Assembly (NCBI GenBank): GCA_002952755.1
Contig: CP025011.1
Span: 570,001 to 602,000 of the forward strand
Source of the DNA: Candidatus Saccharimonadota bacterium
GTDB lineage: Bacteria; Patescibacteriota; Saccharimonadia; Saccharimonadales; UBA4665
Direction: 5' to 3'
DNA: 32,000 nucleotides
A program made the translations under genes and the position numbers. The notes beneath the pieces are model-generated. The model was not told the origin of the DNA, searched no databases, and worked only from the letters and a program-made list of their open reading frames with translations. How positions within the stretch are numbered: position 1 is the stretch's first letter; each line of letters begins with the position of its first letter. Positions 10,786 through 26,130 of this stretch are shown piece after piece.

Positions 10786-10981
10786 TTAGTAACTCCATAG
10801 GTTAGTAGGTTTGATCCCTACTTTTGGTCCTAGAGGAAGTTTTGTTTCGAGATAAACAAAAACTCCCGCCACCTAGGCGAGAGCTTTTTGAATCAGCGAA
10901 AACCAAGGCGGGCTAGGACAATAGCGTCGTCATTGTTTGGAGATGGTTGCTGATTCGAGATATCATTGTATTAGTATAACA
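10786..10981 (-). promoter_or_regulatory. Structured 5' leader of the thrS-like gene with mutually exclusive helices (attenuator-like) and an extended -10 (TGTTATACT)
   Basis: On the minus strand, GAAUCAGC (10949..10956) pairs with GCUGAUUC (10890..10897). CCCGCC (10907..10912) pairs with GGCGGG (10865..10870), followed by AGUUUUUGUUU. The two helices cross and so cannot coexist. The -10 is at 10973..10981. Confidence 0.3.
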
Positions 10982-10989
10982 TTAAAGAT
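10982..10989. repeat. Left copy of the 8-bp target-site duplication TTAAAGAT
   Basis: Identical to 20166..20173 on the same strand. It directly abuts the outer end of IR-L. Confidence 0.85.
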
Positions 10990-11016
10990 GGCAATTATAT
11001 ACTTGACGTTACCAAA
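10990..11016. repeat. Terminal inverted repeat IR-L (GGCAATTATATACTTGACGTTACCAAA)
   Basis: Exact reverse complement of 20139..20165. Confidence 0.9.
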
Positions 11017-11019
11017 ATG

Positions 11020-11045
11020 AAAAAGAGGCTATTTGGCCTCTTTTT
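11020..11045. terminator. Rho-independent terminator (bidirectional) overlapping the stop of the 56-aa gene
   Basis: AAAAAGAGGC (11020..11029) pairs with GCCTCTTTTT (11036..11045) around a 6-nt loop. The T-run extends to 11047. Confidence 0.7.
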
Positions 11046-11199
11046 TTGGTGGCGGAGTTTGGGAGATCTTCTTAACGGCTTTCCTGAAAGGCGTGTTTAA
11101 CTTTACCCGCTTTTCAGCAGGATTTACCTTAGCTTGATCAACTTTAATTTGTTTGGCCAGCTTCTCTAGTTGCTCTTTGCTCGGCTGGTTGTCTGGCAT
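11029..11199 (-). CDS. Small lysine-rich hypothetical protein, 56 aa (not in the ORF track)
   Basis: ATG at 11199 is preceded by a perfect AGGAGG with 5-nt spacing and a TATAAT about 20 nt further upstream. Translation: MPDNQPSKEQLEKLAKQIKVDQAKVNPAEKRVKLNTPFRKAVKKISQTPPPKKEAK. The terminator sits at its stop. Confidence 0.5.
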   Translation of the reverse strand: MPDNQPSKEQLEKLAKQIKVDQAKVNPAEKRVKLNTPFRKAVKKISQTPPPKKEAK

Positions 11200-11432
11200 A
11201 GAAACCTCCTGCCACTATTATAATCTATAGCGAGCTGTCGAAAACGGATGGATATCAACTATTCTTTCTCGACACTTATCCCTTGAGCCTTTTATCTCAT
11301 CGCTTTCCGTCATACTAAATGCATCTTGAAAGCGCTATAGGTCTGACATATAAAAACAGAAGCCTCAAAAAAAGCTGATAGCCAGGAACGGCTGAACTCA
11401 TCAGGGGCTTTTTAATAGTCTACCTGTTCGTT

Positions 11433-11795
11433 ATGGTCTATCAGCTGGTTCATGGCCTTGTCTTAACAGGTGGCTCTAATGTCTTATATAACAATCCGGC
11501 CCTTGCAAAGACACAAGATTTCTCTCTGCCTTTAAGCGGTTTACTAGTATACGACATACCGAACTTAATCTTAGCCGCCCTAGGAGTAGTCTTCCTGATC
11601 TTGGCCTTTAAGAAAATGAAGGCGGCAATCGCCTGCGGCCTTGTTCTAAGTATTCTATGGCCCGTTGTTCTCCTTATTTGGCATGTGGCGGGAGAAAAAT
11701 CTCATTTCGGTACCATTGTGGATATACTGCCAAATATCATTAATATCTTTTATCTTTTGCTGTCCAAGCGGGTAAAAGCTCCATTCGTTAAGTGA
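11433..11795 (+). CDS. Hypothetical small membrane protein
   Basis: 120 aa with 2-3 hydrophobic helices (ILAALGVVFLILAF, ACGLVLSILWPVVLLIW). No family recognised. Confidence 0.4.
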   Translation: MVYQLVHGLVLTGGSNVLYNNPALAKTQDFSLPLSGLLVYDIPNLILAALGVVFLILAFKKMKAAIACGLVLSILWPVVLLIWHVAGEKSHFGTIVDILPNIINIFYLLLSKRVKAPFVK

Positions 11796-12036
11796 TTCCC
11801 TAGTTTGCGGCATTGGTTCATCTTGCAGAAAGTAAGCAGTAAAGGGTCAACACAGACGTTTATTGCCAAACGGTATGGGGAGGATGACACATTTGCTTAA
11901 GGCTAGCTTAACTACAGGTCATATGAGCCGACATTAAGATAACATATAGCCTATTAAAACCATGGTTTCAAAGCTGCATTAAGGAAATTCTTTCGTCTCT
12001 TTATTCGTACCGTTGGATGGACAAGCAGCGAAATAA

Positions 12037-12839
12037 TCAGGCACTGCCAGGCGGCAGTAAGCTTTTGCCGCCCATCGTATCCTGCAAGGCAGCAACGATC
12101 TCAGTCTCACGCGTAGTCTGGGGAGCGATTCGTTCATACCGTTTGCTCGGTAATCCCTGGGTTTTACGTTCTACCAGTTCACGAACTTGTTCGCTGTATG
12201 CGTCATGATAGTCTTCTAAATATAATGGGCCACTGAATCGTTTTACTACCATGCTCAATGCCTCCAACTCTGCCGGAGCGAGTTTCGGAAGGGCAGGCGT
12301 TTGAGTGTATTTCTCGGAATAATCTTAGCGGCAAAATGCAATTGCTGGAGTACTATAACGTCGCCCTGAACTCCAAGCACCGCGATATGCTCATGAGCGT
12401 ATATGACGAAATGGGCAACTGCTACCTTGTGCTGCCGATCCAACACCTCACGCATTAGAGCATAGGCGCGTTCGCCACCTTTGGAAGGTACAATATAAAA
12501 TGGTTTATCAAAGTACAGAGTAGGTATGGCTTCCGGTTCACAAAACTGTAGGATACTAATTGCCTTGCTCGACAAGTTTTTACTGGTGGTCAGTTCATCA
12601 TCGGTAAAAGTGATATAGCGCCCCGGTTCATACTCAATACCACGCACTACTTCCGAAGCATCTATTTTTCGGTGTTTTATCTGGCAATGCAGCTCACGTT
12701 CGACGGGTGATCCATCCGCTTCATGTAATTGTACGAATCGGGGCCGGATTGACTGAATAGCCGTATAGAGCCGGACTGGGATACCCAACCTTCCTAACGT
12801 GAGATACCCCTGCCATGCTGCATGGTTGGTGTGTGCCAT
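12037..12839 (-). pseudogene. ku: Ku (NHEJ DNA-end-binding protein), split by a frameshift
   Basis: The N-terminal ORF (12255..12839) starts WQGYLTLGRLGIPVRLYTA, the typical bacterial Ku start, and has a Ku core. The C-terminal part continues in another frame as ...TPALPKLAPAELEALSMVVKRFSGPLYLEDYHDAYSEQVRELVERK (12037..about 12324). The frame switch must lie within 12255..12324. Confidence 0.75.
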
Positions 12840-12934
12840 GATAAACGTATCCTTTAGTATTTATAGGTGATGAGTCAACTAGCCAGTAAACGTGCAGACA
12901 ACTGCTTAGCTGAACTGTCCGACCGACTGCAAAC

Positions 12935-13834
12935 TTATGGCAAGTGATTGCCGCCCGTAACCCCTAGTACCTCTGCTGTAATATAGCTCGATTCCTGTGA
13001 CGCAAAAAACACATACGCTGGTGCAAGTTCTGCTGGTTGCGCCGGACGGCCAAGTGGCACCTGACTACCAAAATCTGGGACTTTCTCCTCTGGTTGACCG
13101 TGGCTCGGCTGCAGGGGTGTCCAGACCGGACCTGGCGCCACCGCATTAACGCGGATACCCTTATCAGCTAGTTGTTTCGCTAAAGCTTTTGTAAACGCCA
13201 CAACGGCTGCTTTAGTCGAAGCGTAATCGAGTAACGTCGGTGAGGGCTGGTACGACTGGATAGAGGCAGTGTTTATAATAGTCGCCCCCGCTGGCATATG
13301 TGGGATCGCATATTTACAGAGCCAGAACATGGCATATACATTGGTACGGAATGTTTTGTCGAACTGATCGGTGCTAACGTCAGCTATATCTTCGACCGCT
13401 CGCTGCTTGCCTGCGATATTCGCAAGTATATCGATACCACCAAGTTCTTTGACAGTAGTCTCAACGAGTTCTTTACAGAACCCCTCGTCAGTGATGTCAC
13501 CGGGGCATGGTACGGCTTTGCGACCAGCCTGCGTAATGAGCTCGACCACTTCCTGGGCATCGGTTTCTTCTTCAGGTAGATAGGACAGTATGATGTCTGC
13601 CCCCTCTCGGGCGAATGCTATAGCGGTCGCTCGGCCAATACCTGAATCTGCTCCCGTTACTAACGCCTTACGGCCGGTTAGTCTACCCCTCCCCTCGTAG
13701 GATTCTTCCCCGTGGTCGGGTTTGGGATTCATGTCTTTGGCAAGTCCGGGCTCTGACTGCGTTTGTTTATCAAATGGTGGCTTGGGGTACTGTTCAGTCG
13801 GGTCTTGCATAGTTGTTTGGTCAATATCTGCCAT
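12935..13834 (-). CDS. SDR-family oxidoreductase of the YdaD/YghA (general stress protein 39-like) type
   Basis: A long N-terminal extension precedes [35 protein letters not shown], then NIAG and the SIQSY...Y..TK catalytic region. Confidence 0.85.
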
Positions 13835-13854
13835 ATAAAGTATTCTCCTTGTGT

Positions 13855-14130
13855 TTAAGCGTTCGTGTGGTGAGATCGATGCTGAAAGGCATTAAGCAGA
13901 AATACGAGTATTAGAGAACCGACAAATGACCAGGCGAGTCCAACCCATGAAAATGATAGATAGGCTTGACTGCCACCGCTCAATAGACTTGATAGCAGAC
14001 CACCAATAATCGATCCAACGATGCCGATGATGACGCTGGCGATAACACCTTCTTCACGGCCCGCTACTTTTGCTGCCAACCAACCAATAAATCCACCTAT
14101 AATTAGTGCGATAATAAGGCTCATAATCAC
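13855..14130 (-). CDS. GlsB/YeaQ/YmgE-family stress-response membrane protein
   Basis: 91 aa. [13 protein letters not shown]...[11 protein letters not shown] glycine-zipper TM repeats are typical of the transglycosylase-associated family. Confidence 0.8.
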
Positions 14131-14314
14131 CCCCGTTTCTTTAGTTGATCCTTACTGCCTACGATCTTCAGTCCCCTCCAGCTCTTAATGAGCCAACTAC
14201 CGTTTTATCGCCCCTTTGACTGCGAGCTTCAGTACACTTTTCAGAATTCCCATAATGCTAACTCCTATACCTTTACGTATTATTGCTTTTCTCCTACTGC
14301 CTAACAGGACAGCT

Positions 14315-14545
14315 CTAGGACCTTGGATGCCACTTGCCATCGTCACCCTTCTCGTACTTTTGCTTAACGGCCTGCCATGCTACCCGGTGAGCGACCTCCT
14401 CCCGGCTGCTATCACCCCGCCGATCTTTCGGCTCTTTGTATTCATCCCAGGCGCTGTCGAAGGCTTCACGGTATATATCTTGAGCATGAGCAGGAAGGAC
14501 GTTCGTCACGCTATCAGGTAATTCGCTGTTCTGCTTGTAGGGCAT
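14315..14545 (-). CDS. chaB: ChaB-family protein
   Basis: Internal ATG at 14545 with GGAGGGGAG as SD, 19 nt after the upstream gene's stop. MPYKQNSELPDSVTNVLPAHAQDIYREAFDSAW...VAWQAVKQKYEK matches the ChaB pattern. Confidence 0.75.
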   Translation of the reverse strand: MPYKQNSELPDSVTNVLPAHAQDIYREAFDSAWDEYKEPKDRRGDSSREEVAHRVAWQAVKQKYEKGDDGKWHPRS

Positions 14546-14564
14546 GGTCGGCTCCCCTCCCCGA

Positions 14565-15128
14565 TTACTGTGTGATTGCCGCCGCGATTCGTGCCGGTAA
14601 ACTTTGGTGCTCAATGACTGCTAGCTGCTCAGCGCCATGTGCTTCAAAGCACTTCTGTACTTCTTGCTCGCTTACTTTGTTATCCTCTACGCCCAATAAG
14701 ACTCCACCGGCCTTAATGACAGATTCGTGGTGTTTTGCCGTTTCCTCCGGTATGCCGAGTCCGACCAGTGCGCCGACAATGCCGCCTGCCGTGGCTCCCA
14801 CGGCACCACCGGTCACGGTAGCTAATGCCACCCAGCCGAGGCCTGCTAGCAGCACGACCGGGCCAGCTACGAACATACCGGCCGTGGCGACGGCTCCCGC
14901 TATAAGCCCGGCAAGTCCTCCGGCCACTCCACTGACTGCAGCGCCGCCACCGGCTACTTTTCCGCTGGTGGATTCAGCAATCGTGCCCTTGAAGTTGTCA
15001 GTCTTCTCTGTATCTTCTTGGCCTATGACTGAGAAATCCTCCGGCGGAACACCCGCTTCCTCAAGTTCCATAATTGCTTCGTTTGCTTCCTTCCGATCAG
15101 GGAAGGCACCGATTACTAGTTTTGCCAT
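14565..15128 (-). CDS. YflT/GSP17M-like general stress protein with central Gly/Ala-rich membrane segment
   Basis: The N-terminus (KLVIGAFPDRKEANEAIMELEEAGVPPEDFSVIG) and C-terminus (GIPEETAKHHESVIKAGGVLLGVE) flank a G/A-rich hydrophobic core. Confidence 0.6.
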   Translation of the reverse strand: MAKLVIGAFPDRKEANEAIMELEEAGVPPEDFSVIGQEDTEKTDNFKGTIAESTSGKVAGGGAAVSGVAGGLAGLIAGAVATAGMFVAGPVVLLAGLGWVALATVTGGAVGATAGGIVGALVGLGIPEETAKHHESVIKAGGVLLGVEDNKVSEQEVQKCFEAHGAEQLAVIEHQSLPARIAAAITQ

Positions 15129-15158
15129 AAGCTCCTCCTTACTGTGCTTAACGTTTGC

Positions 15159-15518
15159 TTATACATGTGCGTGCGGTTCGTGGTGGTGGGTATTTACCGT
15201 GATCGCACCGCTTGCCCAGGCAAGGACCGCCACGACAACACCAACAATCACCTCATTCCAGCGCGCTGCGGTCGTTGTACCAGATATTGCCCATGTGGCA
15301 ATAATGATCCAAATTCCGATCAGTAGATTTATCCAACTTGGCCAAGCCACGTTCGGCGCAGCCAGACGGATTATTCCAAGTATCGCAATGATCGCCCCGC
15401 ACATTACTTCCTGCCACTTATTACCGCTTGAAGCATAGTTTAGTACGAAAGGTGCGATAATCAGCCAGAAACCGGCTAACACGTTAATGCCGCTTAATGT
15501 TCTTGTTGAGTCATCCAT
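15159..15518 (-). CDS. SPW-repeat membrane protein
   Basis: Two repeats of the SPW-family pattern: NVLAGFWLIIAPFVLNY and WINLLIGIWIIIATWAISG. Four TM helices. Confidence 0.65.
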   Translation of the reverse strand: MDDSTRTLSGINVLAGFWLIIAPFVLNYASSGNKWQEVMCGAIIAILGIIRLAAPNVAWPSWINLLIGIWIIIATWAISGTTTAARWNEVIVGVVVAVLAWASGAITVNTHHHEPHAHV

Positions 15519-15534
15519 GGTGTAACTTCCGGCC

Positions 15535-15762
15535 TTACATATTTACACTCAACGCAATATAGGTGTTCAGAGTACTCTTCTTTGTACAAGGGAACCAATC
15601 ACTCCTGCCTAATGTGATGGGCGTGAGCTCACGTAGATTCCCCATCGTCGAAGGTGTAACTAGGGCAGTCGCTTTGGGGGTCATGTTTTCCGGGCTTTTA
15701 ACCGGAAGTATGACCTCTTGGCTGTCCTGGCTGGTATCCTTCTTTGGTAAAACATTAGACAT
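15535..15762 (-). CDS. Hypothetical protein (weak call)
   Basis: 75-aa ORF with AAGGAAGG about 10 nt upstream of the ATG. It fills the gap in a co-directional chain. No family recognised. Confidence 0.3.
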   Translation of the reverse strand: MSNVLPKKDTSQDSQEVILPVKSPENMTPKATALVTPSTMGNLRELTPITLGRSDWFPCTKKSTLNTYIALSVNM

Positions 15763-15787
15763 AAGCCATTACCTTCCTTTAGGGGTT

Positions 15788-15811
15788 AGAGGAGAGCCGA
15801 AGCTCTCCTCT
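15788..15811 (-). other. Stable intercistronic RNA hairpin with UUCG tetraloop
   Basis: AGAGGAGAGC (15788..15797) pairs with GCTCTCCTCT (15802..15811). On the transcribed minus strand the loop reads UUCG. No U-run follows, so it is not a classical terminator. Confidence 0.5.
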
Positions 15812-15818
15812 AGAGCGT

Positions 15819-16025
15819 CTACTCATTTTCACTGCGACGACCGCCGCTGTGACTGTTCTCGCCACCCTTAACTTTTGCTTCGTGGGGTTCTGCTTCAGCA
15901 CCCCTCTTCCCAAGCTTTGACATGTCCTGCTTTGAGCTGCTGGCTTGACCGCCTTTGCTGGCTATTTCACGCTGTTTGTCGTCATCCATCGCTGCAAATC
16001 CACGGTTGCTGTTGTTGTCTGCCAT
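15819..16025 (-). CDS. KGG-repeat stress-induced protein (YciG/GsiB-like)
   Basis: 68 aa. RGFAAMDDDKQREIASKGGQASS and KVKGGENSHSGG repeats. AAGGAG is the SD. Confidence 0.8.
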   Translation of the reverse strand: MADNNSNRGFAAMDDDKQREIASKGGQASSSKQDMSKLGKRGAEAEPHEAKVKGGENSHSGGRRSENE

Positions 16026-16061
16026 AATATTTCTCCTTCTTCCTTAGATAAACTTCGCTCG

Positions 16062-16175
16062 CTATTGGTTGTTATTGCTGCGACCACCACGGCTGGCTTT
16101 GCCGCCTTCACTGGCAACCCGCTTGCGGGTCTTCTCGTCGGCACTGGCCAAACCACGCTTGCTGTTCTTTGCCAT
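16062..16175 (-). CDS. Second KGG-type stress protein, 37 aa (not in the ORF track)
   Basis: ATG at 16175 is preceded by AAGGAGG. Translation: MAKNSKRGLASADEKTRKRVASEGGKASRGGRSNNNQ. It parallels the N-terminal half of the downstream paralogue. Confidence 0.6.
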   Translation of the reverse strand: MAKNSKRGLASADEKTRKRVASEGGKASRGGRSNNNQ

Positions 16176-16285
16176 AACGCCCTCCTTCGCTTACGTTGAT
16201 ATTGCAAGTTTTACTGTAGCTTGATTGCCCAAAGCATGCCGTTAGCTTCCTCGCGGTACAAACCTCCCAAAGCTAACGATGAACT

Positions 16286-16301
16286 TGTGAGACCTGACAC
16301 A
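16286..16301. promoter_or_regulatory. CRP/FNR-type site TGTGA-N6-ACACA
   Basis: Located in the divergent region between the stress gene chain and the crp/fnr-like gene. The left half is perfect and the right half matches 4 of 5 positions of TCACA. Confidence 0.3.
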
Positions 16302-16377
16302 GGATCAGAGGTAATATATCGCTTACGAGCAAGGCGAGGCAGCGGCTATTTCCTAGCTATGGCGCATTTTTTTAGCT

Positions 16378-17061
16378 ATGCTAAAAACGGAGAATCAACC
16401 TATGCCACCCGCATTACGCAAACTACTCGAAGGCTCCCGCTTGAAGCACGCCCCAAAAGGACAAATTCTTTTATATGCGGGCGACCGCCCTACTGAGGTG
16501 CAGCTGATTAAAGAGGGAGTGGTGAAACTCAACAACATTGATGATCAAGGCAATGAAAAGATACTCCACTTGTTACGGGCCCCGATGATTGTTCCCCTCG
16601 CTTTCTTCTCTCGGCCGGAAATCGCTACCCGCTGGTATTACACGACGCTTACGAATTGCGAATTGTATGTACTACGGCGAGAGGAGTTGGAGCACCTTAT
16701 GGAGACGGACGCATGGACTATGCGCTTTCTCATCAACAATTTCTCTGAGGAAGTGCATGAAATACTGACAAGGCTCGATAGCCTGGGCAAGTCTGATAGT
16801 ACTTATAAGTTGCTTATTGCCCTGCGCTATCTAGTAGTTTGCTACGGCGTAAAGGGTCGGGGCGGTTGGTGGGAGATACCATTCTCGGTTAACCACCAGC
16901 TGCTTGCTGATATGATAGGCGTCTCTAGAGAGACGGTCTCGCTGGCCATGAAGATATTAAGCGACGACAAGATCGTACGTAATCCACGTCTCGCGCGACT
17001 ACAGATTAATTTTGATAACTTGAAAGATTACATAACGAGCCACAGTACGGCTGCGTCATAG
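16378..17061 (+). CDS. Crp/Fnr family transcriptional regulator
   Basis: An N-terminal cNMP-binding-like beta-roll (ILLYAGDRPTEVQLIKEGVVKL) and a C-terminal HTH (LADMIGVSRETVSLAMKILSDDKIV). The alternative start at ATG 16402 has a better SD (ACGGAGA). Confidence 0.8.
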   Translation: MLKTENQPMPPALRKLLEGSRLKHAPKGQILLYAGDRPTEVQLIKEGVVKLNNIDDQGNEKILHLLRAPMIVPLAFFSRPEIATRWYYTTLTNCELYVLRREELEHLMETDAWTMRFLINNFSEEVHEILTRLDSLGKSDSTYKLLIALRYLVVCYGVKGRGGWWEIPFSVNHQLLADMIGVSRETVSLAMKILSDDKIVRNPRLARLQINFDNLKDYITSHSTAAS

Positions 17062-17167
17062 TGTCTCTAGTTTTAGCGGTAACTACCGCATGCCGATTTT
17101 GTAGTATGGCGCACTCTTTCTACTGGCAGTGCTCTATCAGGTTAACAACGAGGAGCAGATCTAATAG

Positions 17168-17242
17168 GGCCATAAGGCTGCGATTATGGGCGGGTGGGGT
17201 ATTGGGTGAGCGACAGCTATCGCCTTCGCTCATGAGGGCGCC
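17168..17242 (+). pseudogene. Remnant of an SDR N-terminus (paralogous to 12935..13834) with in-frame TGA
   Basis: Translation GHKAAIMGGWGIG*ATAIAFAHEGA compares with [26 protein letters not shown] of the intact SDR. The stop at 17207..17209 replaces the Arg codon. No recognisable continuation follows. Confidence 0.5.
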
Positions 17243-17396
17243 ACCACTCCTTCCCATATCCTTCCCTTAAAGCCTTGCTGCTTTATTGACTCGACCGTAG
17301 TGAACCGCATATGTATATTTTCTGTATCCCACGCATCTTCCAGAAGCTTTCTCGTCGCTCGCTTGCAGTAGATCATATCGGCTTTGGTAGGACAGA

Positions 17397-18657
17397 TGTC
17401 AAGCTCCGGTTTTTCCGGACACCTTGTCTCTTTCCAGCGGAGCCGGGATGAGACTGGCAGCGTAAGCTGCCGGGCTCATCTTGAGAGCTAGGTGGATACG
17501 GTTGTGGTTGTAGTAATGTACCGTCAGGGCAATGGCTTCGTAAAGCTGGCCTAGGTCTTGGTACTGCGCTAGCTTGCACAGCTCGGGCTTGAAACTGCCA
17601 AAGAATCTCTCCATGAAGCCATTCTGCCACGGACTGGCTCGTTTGCTGCAACTGAGGGTAATCTCGAATTGGTCGCAGACCAATTGGTGCTTGTAGCTCA
17701 GGTATTCACTGCCTTGGTCACTGTGGAGAATGGTTGGAGCGGGATACTTGGCCAGTGCATCTTTTAGGGCAGCGAGCTAACGCTCGCTGCTGTGCCTGAG
17801 TCCTAACTTCCAGCCAACCACTTGCCTGGTCTTGAGGTCAAGCACGACCGCCAGGTAGTGCCAGCTCCGCTGGAACCACAAGTAGGTGAAGTCTTGTACC
17901 CAGCCTCCGGAGTCCGACATGGCAGCGTAGCTCATGCCATCTTGCGGTCTGCTTTCGTTGCGGTAGTGGGCGAAACGCTTGGGCACATTGGGTGCAGCCA
18001 GTATCTCGGCTGGTGCCGAGATACTGTAGCGTTTCTTCTTGGTTGGGCGGGCAATGGTGACGTTTGCAAGTGTCCGGATACGCCTTGCTTTGTGCTGACT
18101 CCAACCGAGGTGCAAGCTGAGCCGTCGGACACCGTACAGCGGATGCTGTACATGCGCTTCGCGCAGTGTGGCCACTGCTTGTTTGTCCCGCTCACGGAGT
18201 GTGAGCGGCTGCGCGTAGTAGCTACTACGCGCAATGCCAAGCTTGGCCACGAAATGTTTGTGCCATCCTGGGTTGACCTCTTCCAGGATGGCTAGTCTTT
18301 TGAGCGGTGCATTTCGGCCGTTGCTCGTCCGAGCAGCTTGTACAGCTGCTCGTTTTCTTTGCGAAGCTTGTTGAGCTCGAGCACAAGGTTGCGGTTGCCG
18401 TCGACGACGTTCTTCCGCAGCCAACGGTAGATGCTCTTGCTGCTGACGTTGTAGGTGGCACTCGCGTCAGTGACGCTCATGCCACCATCTCGGATCTTAG
18501 CCAAAATGGTTGTTTTGACCTACTGGTCGGTTGGTTTGCCTGTGGGCATACAGAAAAAGCTCCTTTCACTAGCAGCGCTGACGCGCTGCTAGTTTTATGT
18601 TACCAAATGAGTCAATTCCGGAAGAGACTACGTGTCTAGTTTAATGGGAGCCTGACA
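17397..18657 (-). mobile_element. IS3-family insertion sequence (1,261 bp), decayed
   Basis: Imperfect terminal IRs start with TGTCA and match at 27 of 38 hand-aligned positions. OrfA (HTH/leucine zipper) and orfB (rve DDE core) are in the -1 frame relationship, with a TCAAAAG slippery-like site near 18292. Visibly more GC-rich than its surroundings. Confidence 0.85.
17399..18549 (-). pseudogene. IS3 transposase orfAB, disrupted by two in-frame TAG codons
   Basis: OrfA reads MPTGKPTDQ*VKTTILAKIRDGGMSVTDA (TAG at 18520..18522). OrfB reads ...GLRHSSER*LAALKDALAKYPAPTILHSDQGSEY (TAG at 17777..17779) within the DDE domain. Confidence 0.8.
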
Positions 18658-18939
18658 CTAGTATTTGAGTATGTGCTCTCCATGTATGTTCAGTTGTCTG
18701 AAGCGACGTATGGCGTTGATGCCTAGGTAATAGACTGCCGGCTTGGTCTTCTCAGCAAAATGCGTTGAGTAGATCCACTCAACATACTGCTTTTCACGTA
18801 GGTCTTTCAGCCATAGGTTAGTGTTCTTGTAGTCCTTTTGATTCAGTAATGCCTGTATCTGTATACGATTTAAGAATCTATGTTCATACAAAAGATTGAT
18901 TATATTCCTTTGTCTCTCGGTTATTTTCGGTAAGTTCAT
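18658..18939 (-). pseudogene. Replication-relaxation-like winged-helix protein, 3'-truncated at the IS3 junction
   Basis: ITERQRNIINLLYEHRFLNRIQIQALL...LWLKDLREKQYVEW...KPAVYYLGINAIRRF resembles the N-terminal wHTH of the replication-relaxation family. The stop codon directly abuts the IS3 end (18657). Confidence 0.4.
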
Positions 18940-19117
18940 AGGGATAGGTAGATATTAAGTAAAAGTAATAGTTAGTAGTTTTTAGATTTTTATTTGCGTA
19001 TTGTTGTGAAGTTTTTCGTTTGTGTCAGCAGCTAGTAAGTAATTAGCCAACCCCACCTATCCGTATATTTATAATATAGATAACACGAGTATACAAACAT
19101 TAACAGATTAAATATAG

Positions 19118-19155
19118 GTGCATTTATACCCTAGCGCGCAAGGGTATAAATGCAC
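19118..19155. terminator. 15-bp perfect hairpin downstream of the transposase gene
   Basis: GTGCATTTATACCCT (19118..19132) pairs with AGGGTATAAATGCAC (19141..19155) around an 8-nt loop. A T-run follows on the + strand; the U-tract on the minus strand is weak. Confidence 0.55.
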
Positions 19156-19175
19156 ATTTTTCCAACATGGGTGAG

Positions 19176-20117
19176 TCAGGCTTTCTTAGTGAGCGTTTTA
19201 TAGGTTAAACGTTTCCCGTTAAAGTTCGCAAACCACTCCTCAAACCGTTCGCCGTCGTTCATCTCTCGCGTGTTCCAACGGTAGCTATACTCGTCGCAGT
19301 ATTTCTGTAAGTGCTTTGGGCTGACATGGTGGTAAATACCGTTAATGCCACGCTTGAGATGTGACCAAAACGATTCTGCTGTATTGGTGCTAGCCATGCC
19401 ATTTACAAACTCTTTAACGCCATGATTGACGCTTTCGTGTTTGTAGCCGATCTTAGGCAAAGTACGGTAAGGCATGTGCTCGTCAGTGTACACTGTAGCG
19501 TCAATATCAATGTGCTTGCGAACTAGGCCCATGAGAGTTGCGCTGCCGGTATCGCTTGTTACTACGGCATGGAGGCTACCGCCACGTTCTACCATACCGA
19601 CGACTGGAGTTTTACTATTCTTGCTGCCAAAGCCTTGAGCGCCTTTACCAGTGAGGTACTTGGTGCGCTTCGTGGCGTGTTTATTATTATCCTTGCCACC
19701 GATGTAGGCTTCGTCCATTTCTACAGCGTCTTTGAGTTTTTCAAAGGTGCCGCTCTCGAAGACGTAGCGAATGCGTTGGAGCATGAACCAACTTGTCTTT
19801 TGGGTGACGTTTAAGTATCTGGCAAGTTGGATTGATGAGATTCCTTTTTTTAGGCTTGTGCAAAGGTAGATAGCAAGGAGCCATTTCTGTAGCGGAATCA
19901 TACTGTCTTCAAAGATGGTGCCCATGCGGACAGTAAAGGGCTTGCGGCATTCCGCACATTTGAGGCGGCCACTGGCAAGTTTGTAAGCTTTGATGCCAAC
20001 AACGCCACACTTCGGGCAGATAATCTCATTGCCCCAACGCTGCTGTGCTATAAACTCTGCACACTTTGCTTCTGAGGCAAATTGATTGAAGAAGTCGATG
20101 AGATTACCCGCATTCAT
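19176..20117 (-). CDS. IS1595-family transposase (N-terminal zinc ribbon plus ISXO2-like DDE domain)
   Basis: CPKCG...KCAECRKPFTVRMGTIFEDSMIPLQKWLLAIYL, then VEMDEAYIGG, VYTDEHMPY, VNH and NTAESFWSHLKR. This is the characteristic IS1595 domain order. Confidence 0.9.
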   Translation of the reverse strand: MNAGNLIDFFNQFASEAKCAEFIAQQRWGNEIICPKCGVVGIKAYKLASGRLKCAECRKPFTVRMGTIFEDSMIPLQKWLLAIYLCTSLKKGISSIQLARYLNVTQKTSWFMLQRIRYVFESGTFEKLKDAVEMDEAYIGGKDNNKHATKRTKYLTGKGAQGFGSKNSKTPVVGMVERGGSLHAVVTSDTGSATLMGLVRKHIDIDATVYTDEHMPYRTLPKIGYKHESVNHGVKEFVNGMASTNTAESFWSHLKRGINGIYHHVSPKHLQKYCDEYSYRWNTREMNDGERFEEWFANFNGKRLTYKTLTKKA

Positions 20118-20138
20118 ACTCTTAGTTTACAGGAGTAG

Positions 20139-20165
20139 TTTGGTAACGTCAAGTATATAATTGCC
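20139..20165. repeat. Terminal inverted repeat IR-R
   Basis: Exact reverse complement of 10990..11016. It lies 21 nt from the transposase ATG. Confidence 0.9.
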
Positions 20166-20173
20166 TTAAAGAT
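20166..20173. repeat. Right copy of the 8-bp target-site duplication TTAAAGAT
   Basis: Identical to 10982..10989. It directly abuts the outer end of IR-R. Confidence 0.85.
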
Positions 20174-20240
20174 TAGAATGGTAAAGTTAATTTTGGCGAG
20201 GGCACTCTCCCCCACACGGCTCGCATAATCTGTTGACTTT

Positions 20241-25560: not shown

Positions 25561-26130
25561 TCATTCTGCGGCATGAGTATCCCTCTCGGCATAGCACTTG
25601 AGATTATACAGCTGCCTGCGCATCATGAAGAGATCGGCGGCAGCGAATACTGGGACTGGGCCAGAAAATCGTAGGCGGTCCAGCCAGCTGCGGGTCGGCA
25701 AGTCGATACATACAATAATACGGGAAGACTGAGGGCTGGTAGCGACAACGAGGTACGTAATGGCTTGCCTGCCTGCAATAGCTTGCAGGCGCGGCCTTAC
25801 AGTACCCGTCAAGTGTCGGCCGGGTACAAAGTCGGCAATTTCGAATAACATAAAATGTTGTCCTTTGGCGAGATGCTCAGTGCCGGGCCGGAGCTGAGCT
25901 GGACTGCGTCGTCCGAGGTTGTCAATCCAGTCATAACTGTATGGTGCAAGTTTTAGCTGGCAGATCCACCGAAAGGTCACATCGGCTGGTGCCTGTACGT
26001 TTACCGCCCTTGTAAGACGACAGCGTGGCAGTGGTACATAGGCGTCGCTTGGGTAGGCTGCCATATGTTCTTTTGGTGTGGTGTTCCAGGCAACGAGACG
26101 GGAAATGCGCATCTTATTTAACCCTGCCAT
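25561..26130 (-). CDS. SRPBCC-fold (polyketide cyclase/dehydrase-like) protein
   Basis: APADVTFRWICQLKLAPYSYDWIDNLGRRSP..L.PG...L..GQHF..FEIADFVPGRHL is a pattern recalled from SRPBCC-family proteins. It is the last gene of the MarR-VOC-SRPBCC chain. Confidence 0.5.
   Translation of the reverse strand: MAGLNKMRISRLVAWNTTPKEHMAAYPSDAYVPLPRCRLTRAVNVQAPADVTFRWICQLKLAPYSYDWIDNLGRRSPAQLRPGTEHLAKGQHFMLFEIADFVPGRHLTGTVRPRLQAIAGRQAITYLVVATSPQSSRIIVCIDLPTRSWLDRLRFSGPVPVFAAADLFMMRRQLYNLKCYAERDTHAAE

Follow-up and report, generated by a model that had tools for sequence, protein, structure and literature searches.

Insertion sequences (IS) of the IS1595 family are mostly about 1 kb long, and some subgroups include larger, passenger-carrying elements: the largest ISNwi1+ members are about 4.75 kb long, and those of ISNha5, with the end consensus CGGnnTT, span 3.45–7.9 kb with passenger genes. 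The concept of passenger-carrying IS (tIS) reportedly goes back to Siguier, Gagnevin and Chandler in 2009. Such elements form an established category (Siguier et al. 2009, as cited in PMC7986276), described as confined to two families, IS1595 and IS66 (bioRxiv 10.1101/2021.05.26.445724). The DNA examined here is a window of 32,000 nucleotides (nt) from a Candidatus Saccharimonadota bacterium (GCA_002952755.1, contig CP025011.1, positions 570,001–602,000), in which the segment 10990–20165 (9,176 bp, window coordinates) is very probably a single transposable unit, an IS1595-family tIS belonging to a Saccharibacteria-specific clade. The element is a new large member of the tIS category. It shares with passenger-carrying IS1595/ISNwi1 members a transposase with a zinc ribbon and a DDE_Tnp_IS1595 domain, terminal repeats of about 27 bp, an 8-bp target duplication and passenger genes. 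Unlike those members, the Saccharibacteria clade adds a conserved Replic_Relax-like gene and a lysine-rich open reading frame (ORF), shows no cargo-free form, and has insertion sites that point to a fixed target within promoter spacers. ISNha5 elements are likewise large, combine a single transposase with several passenger genes and are flanked by an 8-bp duplication, but their end consensus does not match the tip of the window element (GGCAATTAT).

Boundaries, transposase and relatives of the element

The unit is delimited by two 27-nt terminal inverted repeats (IR), the distal IR-L and the transposase-proximal IR-R (Table 1), whose arms are 100% complementary in a repeat-finder search. At up to three mismatches, the repeat has just two matches in the window and none in 100 shuffled sequences. 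The 8-mer TTAAAGAT is found exactly twice in the window, each time directly beside a repeat; as a lone 8-mer it is unremarkable (1.8 occurrences expected), whereas identical 8-mers at both repeats have a chance of 4^-8. The perfect repeats, the perfect duplication and the distance of 21 nt between the transposase start codon and IR-R, all proposed by the initial annotation, are thus borne out. Its statement that no repeat lies near the transposase stop also holds, both in the window (up to three mismatches) and in L001, an independent assembly of the same locus, where no third copy appears at up to seven mismatches. An inner candidate at 18594–18607 agrees with the repeat at only 12 of 14 nt, bears no resemblance to the tip and is ascribed to chance. 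One transposase and one repeat pair thus enclose about 6 kb of stress genes, the arrangement that characterizes a tIS. The organization of a composite transposon is absent: there is a single IS1595 transposase, no second transposase or remnant lies on the IR-L side, and the nested IS3 is one internal copy.

The only intact transposase in the unit matches PF12760 (E = 1e-11), PF12762 (E = 6e-45) and NCBIfam NF033547 (194.5 bits against a cutoff of 75), which upholds its earlier assignment to IS1595. It combines the N-terminal zinc ribbon and the DDE_Tnp_IS1595 catalytic domain of this family, and its terminal repeats are accompanied by the expected 8-bp duplication. Residues D135, D212, E248, E276 and R280 are invariant in 24 homologues (identity down to 51%), and K255 is present in at least 90% of them. 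Placement in the ISNwi1 subgroup is consistent with the ISfinder criteria (ends ggnnatTAT, DDEK plus ER4), to which the tip GGCAATTAT and these residues conform. A search at E <= 1e-30 yielded some 7,800 homologues of the transposase. All its close relatives come from metagenome-assembled genomes of Candidatus Saccharimonadales, to which the present host also belongs. Compared with the IS1595 transposases of PLSDB plasmids, the clade reaches at most 42% amino acid identity, and its nearest annotated relatives there are named only ‘IS1595 family transposase’. Among these plasmid relatives, one, from Methylocystis, ends similarly (GGGGACATATATAC..TTGACC..ACCAAA) but has neither a distal repeat partner nor a promoter-like flank, and in another, from Entomospira, no clear pair of repeats and no flank resembling a promoter was found.

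Comparison with related loci strongly supports the long form of the unit. Among the 39 genome loci examined for pairing of the distal repeat, 16 relatives from other Saccharibacteria genomes have the same repeats in pairs, enclosing 3,048–7,589 bp, all with a perfect 8-bp duplication, and a 17th measures 8,347 bp (duplication TATAAATT). No cargo-free form of about 1 kb was seen among more than 40 related loci. The clade has a common backbone, which runs from the proximal repeat through the transposase, a Replic_Relax-like gene (∼280–300 codons), variable cargo and a lysine-rich ORF to the distal repeat; of 37 related loci scored, 36 have the Replic_Relax-like gene beside the transposase or close to it, the exception being L039. 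The 210 bp at the IR-L end of the window element have 70–73% nucleotide identity to the distal ends of L006, L009, L011 and L012. Because these 210 bp and their 56-codon ORF match the conserved distal module of the clade, IR-L is a genuine distal end. The alternative under which the initial annotation would have been wrong, an IR-L that is an independent relic, thereby fails, and its proposal that the mobile unit is the whole 9,176 bp gains support from the lack of an inner repeat and from 17 long relatives with duplications.

The cargo differs in every member. It includes a dUTPase with AAA_33 kinases and YecM, an AAA_21 protein with DUF4276, a reverse transcriptase, PLD-like nucleases, a peptidase of family S51, a CN-hydrolase with DUF4037, and large proteins without a known domain. 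Defence-like cargo comprises an AAA_21 ATPase with DUF4276 (L009, 15149–17002), a split reverse transcriptase (L027, 13224–14344) and a PLD-like nuclease (L016, 10956–11438). In one subfamily, a PLD-like nuclease directly follows the transposase, and the Replic_Relax gene is inverted at the distal end. One relative occurs at two sites with an identical transposase (P0003), and its two copies show no difference over the first 2,819 nt, counted from the tip (100% identity; L103 from position 274 onward, L105 from position 781 onward); one site lies beside a perfect TTGACA and the other beside a perfect TATAAT. Since the flanks of these two copies are unrelated, units of this clade do transpose.

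Several loci vary in their layout. L039 (9953–12170) holds the only short form, a deletion derivative of 1.39 kb made up of a repeat, transposase residues 1–223, a small ORF and a repeat, with no matching duplication and with an extra solo repeat 0.8 kb further on. In L091 (9426–9896, 18576–19025), an 8.3-kb relative has Inhibitor_I36-family genes on both flanks, and in L095 a distal end is joined through an Inhibitor_I36-family gene to another proximal end, which could reflect tandem copies or an assembly join. In eight loci (L005, L008, L013, L014, L020, L022, L026 and L032), the transposase and the Replic_Relax gene are present, but the 10–11 kb fetched contain neither a distal repeat nor the small ORF; these loci may represent larger or decayed elements. 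The exceptional size originally claimed for the window element is weakened by these eight loci and by the relative of 8.3 kb.

Insertion sites in promoter spacers

The element lies upstream of a gene for a truncated archaeal-type threonyl-tRNA synthetase (ThrRS) of 444 residues, which covers positions 155–609 of PRK03991 and lacks the N-terminal editing part. The reconstructed host site reads TTTACC, 6 nt, [ATCTTTAA], TGT, TATACT, where ATCTTTAA is the duplication in gene orientation. The promoter was split between its -35 and -10 hexamers, because one copy of the duplication abuts TGT-TATACT and TTTACC lies 6 nt past the other. For comparison, 36 loci of ThrS-like orthologues (65–92% identity) were fetched, about 30 of them with enough upstream sequence; nucleotide homology to the window covers the gene and ∼200 nt upstream, and ends at the insertion point. 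These relatives share a promoter of the form TTGaaa, 17-nt spacer, TGnTATAAT, followed by a leader of ∼190 nt with a terminator-like hairpin. The orthologues thus confirm the insertion in the thrS-like promoter region that had been deduced from the flanks, and locate it in the -35/-10 spacer. The empty-site 24-mer (GTATAACATTAAAGATTAGAATGG) had no exact match in JGI metagenome contigs, and searches for identical copies of the two flanking proteins (YCII and ThrS-like) led back to the occupied locus alone.

The same geometry recurs across the clade. Reconstructed empty sites consist of a -35 hexamer, 6 nt, the 8-bp duplication, 3 nt (usually TGn) and a -10 hexamer, as in TTGACA TACACA [ATAATAAA] TGC TATAGT (L006), TTGACA GATTAA [ACTACTTA] TGT TAATAT (L011) and, in the opposite orientation, TTGACT ATATTA [TATTTTTA] TGA TAATAT (L035). 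Both promoter halves are present in 12 of 17 two-sided sites, and the two insertion orientations are about equally frequent. Among 38 independent transposase-proximal junctions, seven have TTGACA (at least 5/6 positions, five perfect) at the exact offset, and eight, in the other orientation, have TG plus TATAAT (at least 5/6). In total, 15/38 junctions fit strictly, whereas the background rate is 0.55% over host positions as a whole (binomial P about 1e-24) and 0.71% where the sequence is AT-rich (P about 1e-22). The signal is lost when the -35 is shifted by up to 5 nt or the -10 by up to 4 nt either way; larger shifts enter the AT-rich duplication and give spurious matches. At many target promoters (L006, L027, L031, L034, L035, L008, L014, L007 and L021), a long ORF begins 6–13 nt past the -10. 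This suggests that the targets are promoters of real, often leaderless genes, and that these Saccharibacteria commonly use leaderless mRNAs.

The terminal repeat itself carries promoter-like sub-sites, with ATTATA at nt 5–10 (TATAAT when read outward) and TTGACG at nt 14–19. After insertion, the host TTGACA and the repeat TTGACG form direct repeats 33 bp apart, and the host TATAAT lies 21 bp from the repeat TATAAT; with these spacings, each host motif and its counterpart in the repeat face the same side of the helix. The arrangement suggests that the target may be read by the very proteins that recognize the sub-sites of the repeat. In the mechanism proposed here, the zinc-ribbon DDE transposase would bind the two identical 27-bp repeats and insert the whole segment by an 8-bp staggered cut, and the transposase or accessory proteins would read the -35-like and -10-like hexamers of the target. 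The present unit landed in the spacer of a sigma70-type promoter, that of the truncated archaeal-type ThrRS gene, in the habitual geometry of its clade. Expression of the host gene might be kept by the extended -10, by the TATAAT that points outward from the tip of the repeat, or by both; the candidate sites are the outward TTTTCA-18-TATAAT at IR-L and a junction site, TTGCCA-18-TACAAT. We lean, with some reservation, towards a Saccharibacteria-wide clade that actively recognizes sigma70-type promoters at a fixed spacer position and in either orientation, perhaps through repeat sub-sites that the transposase or the winged-helix (Replic_Relax-like) protein would also read, while the host gene stays expressed.

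The clade would in this respect resemble site-specific IS, which also insert at a set distance from a recognizable host motif, as described for the IS1202 group at dif/pdif (PMC10132070), for IS that target repetitive extragenic palindromic (REP) sequences (PMC1525189) and for guide-RNA-dependent IS110/IS1111 elements (PMC11187229). Unlike the sites of those elements, the target here is a generic sigma70 promoter (-35 and extended -10) and not a unique or repeated site; insertion occurs in both orientations, the enzyme is an IS1595 DDE transposase, and there is no sign of a guide RNA. As in the repeat-like targeting of IS30 and IS3 types, the targets resemble sub-sites of the element's own repeat (TTGAC, TATAAT). 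No description of promoter-spacer targeting by the IS1595 family was found in the searchable literature, in which the Saccharibacteria clade, its obligatory three-gene backbone and its fixed-offset insertion into promoter spacers appear to be new.

The pattern could instead arise from an AT-rich or otherwise local preference combined with the survival of insertions in intergenic promoters of compact genomes, without active targeting. The duplications are indeed AT-rich, intergenic DNA is short and promoter-rich, and 12 of 41 sites have no clear promoter. This explanation is unlikely, as the background among AT-rich 8-mers is just 0.7%, the hexamers occur at one exact offset only, and insertions that split a -35 from its -10 would normally be expected to be selected against. 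A held-out set from two further transposase clusters, fetched because the promoter geometry had been noticed post hoc, gave three new independent junctions, all of which fit perfectly (TGT-TATAAT, TAT-TATAAT and TTGACA). Several points nevertheless weigh against the main reading of a mobile unit with a promoter-spacer target. The geometry was noticed post hoc; about 12 of 41 junctions have no convincing promoter; the Replic_Relax gene of the window copy is broken; and neither a second copy nor an empty site of the 9.2-kb element was found, its exact transposase occurring only at this locus. We therefore infer the mobility of this copy from its repeats, its duplication and its relatives.

Backbone genes, cargo and state of the copy

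In the relatives, the Replic_Relax-like protein matches Pfam PF13814 over positions 1–184 of 191 (E = 1e-10 to 3e-13). Structurally, its model (predicted local distance difference test score 86) consists of an N-terminal MarR/ArsR-like winged helix and an alpha/beta domain. There was no sequence match in PDB, and Foldseek with the full model returned only MarR/ArsR-type winged helices. The C-terminal domain alone found no significant structural match (best E = 8e-3, template modelling score at most 0.29, with scattered RNase H-like and EcoRI matches), so that a TnsA-like PD-(D/E)xK nuclease is unsupported. The profile match and the N-terminal winged helix are common to the clade's protein and to PF13814 Replic_Relax proteins; what sets the clade's protein apart is that it is always linked to an IS1595 transposase inside terminal repeats. 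This universal linkage suggests an accessory role in transposition or regulation.

The same linkage, together with the naming of the Pfam family for plasmid replication and relaxation, would also fit an integrative plasmid-like or mobilizable element, in which Replic_Relax drives extrachromosomal replication or transfer and the transposase is the integration module. We regard this as improbable, more so than a mere AT preference at the target: no relaxase, type IV secretion system, origin or circular contig was seen, members can be as small as 3 kb, the structural model reveals nothing beyond a winged helix and an unmatched alpha/beta domain, and the window copy has no intact Replic_Relax gene. 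Profile searches of the proteins encoded by the element likewise revealed no recombinase or relaxase domain, only the broken Replic_Relax-like gene.

In the window copy, residues 96–221 of the Replic_Relax-like protein are deleted; the gene was destroyed at a later stage, when an IS3 inserted and neighbouring sequence was lost. The nested IS3 element is complete but decayed, with no target duplication and a broken orfB. The transposase, the repeats and the duplication are all intact. With its Replic_Relax gene broken, the window copy may be non-autonomous, and its autonomy is doubtful. L001 and L002, independent Logan assemblies of this organism, carry the same insertion and match the window with 100% identity apart from a 414-bp deletion (window 15075–15484), which joins SPW residues 1–11 in frame to YflT from residue 20. 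The split Ku gene and the loss of Replic_Relax residues 96–221 are the same across the independent assemblies. The insertion appears fixed and the cargo already decaying. Outside the element, L001 differs from the window by another indel of ∼160 bp (window 25754–25914).

The cargo slot (∼6 kb) holds a stress gene cluster, a Crp-family regulator and a split Ku. The genes of the minus-strand chain follow the order KGG, a 75-codon ORF, SPW, YflT, ChaB, Transgly_assoc, SDR and split Ku; the Ku gene is probably frameshifted, and no LigD partner is encoded inside the element. Rfam searches gave no family in the window at gathering thresholds. Searches by blastn and tblastn did not find this cargo in other members of the clade. 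A JGI contig (L083, 3637–5248) encodes ChaB, a 47-codon ORF, Transgly_assoc and SDR with 91.8% nucleotide identity to window 12935–14545, preceded by a Crp-family gene (49% amino acid identity) and a KGG protein. PIN and PemK toxin-antitoxin genes lie on the flanks, and repeats of the IS1595 clade are missing from this contig. Contig L089 has a cluster of Crp, small proteins, SPW and SDR in a chromosomal context. Because such clusters occur on L083 and L089 outside these elements, the cargo is most readily seen as a captured, Crp-associated stress cluster of Saccharibacteria type and not as foreign DNA. It is a mosaic that circulates in more than one context.

These clusters outside such elements, and the likeness of the cargo to a chromosomal cluster of Saccharibacteria, would also be expected if the stress genes were native to the locus and the ends had arrived separately, or if the segment were a decayed composite of two IS copies. 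This is very improbable, since the cargo accompanies the gene at none of the 36 related ThrS-like loci (about 30 informative upstream), the IR-L side holds neither another transposase nor a remnant, the outer ends are flanked by identical 8-mers, and the insertion cleanly splits one promoter. Finally, a mobile unit of about 1 kb, comprising the transposase and IR-R with IR-L as an unrelated solo relic 9 kb away, would suit the usual size of IS1595 members and the single copy of the element in its genome, but is scarcely credible given that no inner repeat exists at up to seven mismatches, that a perfect 8-bp duplication spans the outer repeats, that the IR-L end bears the conserved distal ORF of the clade, and that 17 relatives have the same long layout with duplications.

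Table 1. Features of the element and of the flanking host promoter (window coordinates)
Feature	Position	Strand	Remarks
Host extended -10 (TGT TATACT) of the ThrS-like promoter	10973..10981	-	0 nt from the duplication
Left target-site duplication copy, TTAAAGAT	10982..10989		Abuts IR-L
IR-L, distal terminal inverted repeat, GGCAATTATATACTTGACGTTACCAAA	10990..11016	+	Outward strand: TATAAT 4 nt from tip
Terminator-like hairpin	11020..11045	-	After the small ORF, just inside IR-L
Small lysine-rich ORF, 56 residues	11029..11199	-	Distal backbone gene; no known family
Membrane protein, 120 residues	11433..11795	+	Cargo; no family above threshold
Ku, split	12037..12839	-	Cargo; 194-residue ORF (Ku_bact 1-177 of 259) and overlapping 76-residue ORF
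SDR oxidoreductase	12935..13834	-	Cargo; PRK06128 type
Transgly_assoc small membrane stress protein	13855..14130	-	Cargo; GlsB/YeaQ-type
ChaB-family protein	14315..14614	-	Cargo
YflT-domain protein	14565..15128	-	Cargo; heat-induced stress
SPW-repeat membrane protein	15159..15518	-	Cargo; lost in the L001/L002 deletion variant
KGG-repeat stress-induced protein	15819..16025	-	Cargo
Crp/Fnr-family regulator	16378..17061	+	Cargo; strand opposite to the stress genes
Replic_Relax-like backbone gene, C-terminal remnant	17236..17396	-	About residues 222-283
Nested IS3-family element, 1,261 bp	17397..18657	-	36-nt imperfect inverted repeats, TG..CA ends
Replic_Relax-like backbone gene, N-terminal fragment	18658..18945	-	Residues 1-95
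IS1595-family transposase, 313 residues	19176..20117	-	Intact; PF12760, PF12762, NF033547
Promoter-like site of the transposase, TTGACG-17-TAAACT	20124..20152	-	-35 inside IR-R
IR-R, transposase-proximal terminal inverted repeat, TTTGGTAACGTCAAGTATATAATTGCC (as the + strand reads)	20139..20165	-	
Right target-site duplication copy, TTAAAGAT	20166..20173		Abuts IR-R
Displaced host -35 (TTTACC)	20180..20185	-	6 nt beyond the other duplication copy

The ThrS-like leader and meaning for Saccharibacteria

The leader that precedes the ThrS-like gene (window 10786–10972, minus strand; upstream regions of L047–L076) is ∼190 nt long and conserved in 20 loci. It contains a stem AATCAGC/GCTGATT with apparent co-variation (AATCAT/ATGATT), an intrinsic-terminator hairpin (GCTCCCG..CGGGAGTTTTT) and a pairing of AACTCCAT with ATGGAGTT that would cover the ribosome-binding site. 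No credible Rfam match was obtained at E values up to 1. The leader is a candidate for a new cis-regulatory element of the ThrS-like gene.

Saccharibacteria and other bacteria of the candidate phyla radiation (CPR) have tiny, gene-dense genomes, and to our knowledge few mobile elements of CPR bacteria have been characterized. The clade described here shows multi-gene cassettes moving between such tiny genomes on a vehicle with a single transposase. With its 27-bp ends, a transposase of 313 residues, possibly one accessory protein and a tolerance for cargo of at least 8 kb, it is a candidate natural genetic tool for Saccharibacteria. If the proposed targeting is true, nucleotide-precise insertion into promoter spacers would be an unusual form of target selection by a DDE enzyme, with a bearing on the rewiring of transcription, and these elements would act as promoter-seeking shuttles of stress, defence and surface-protein cassettes among ultra-small genomes.

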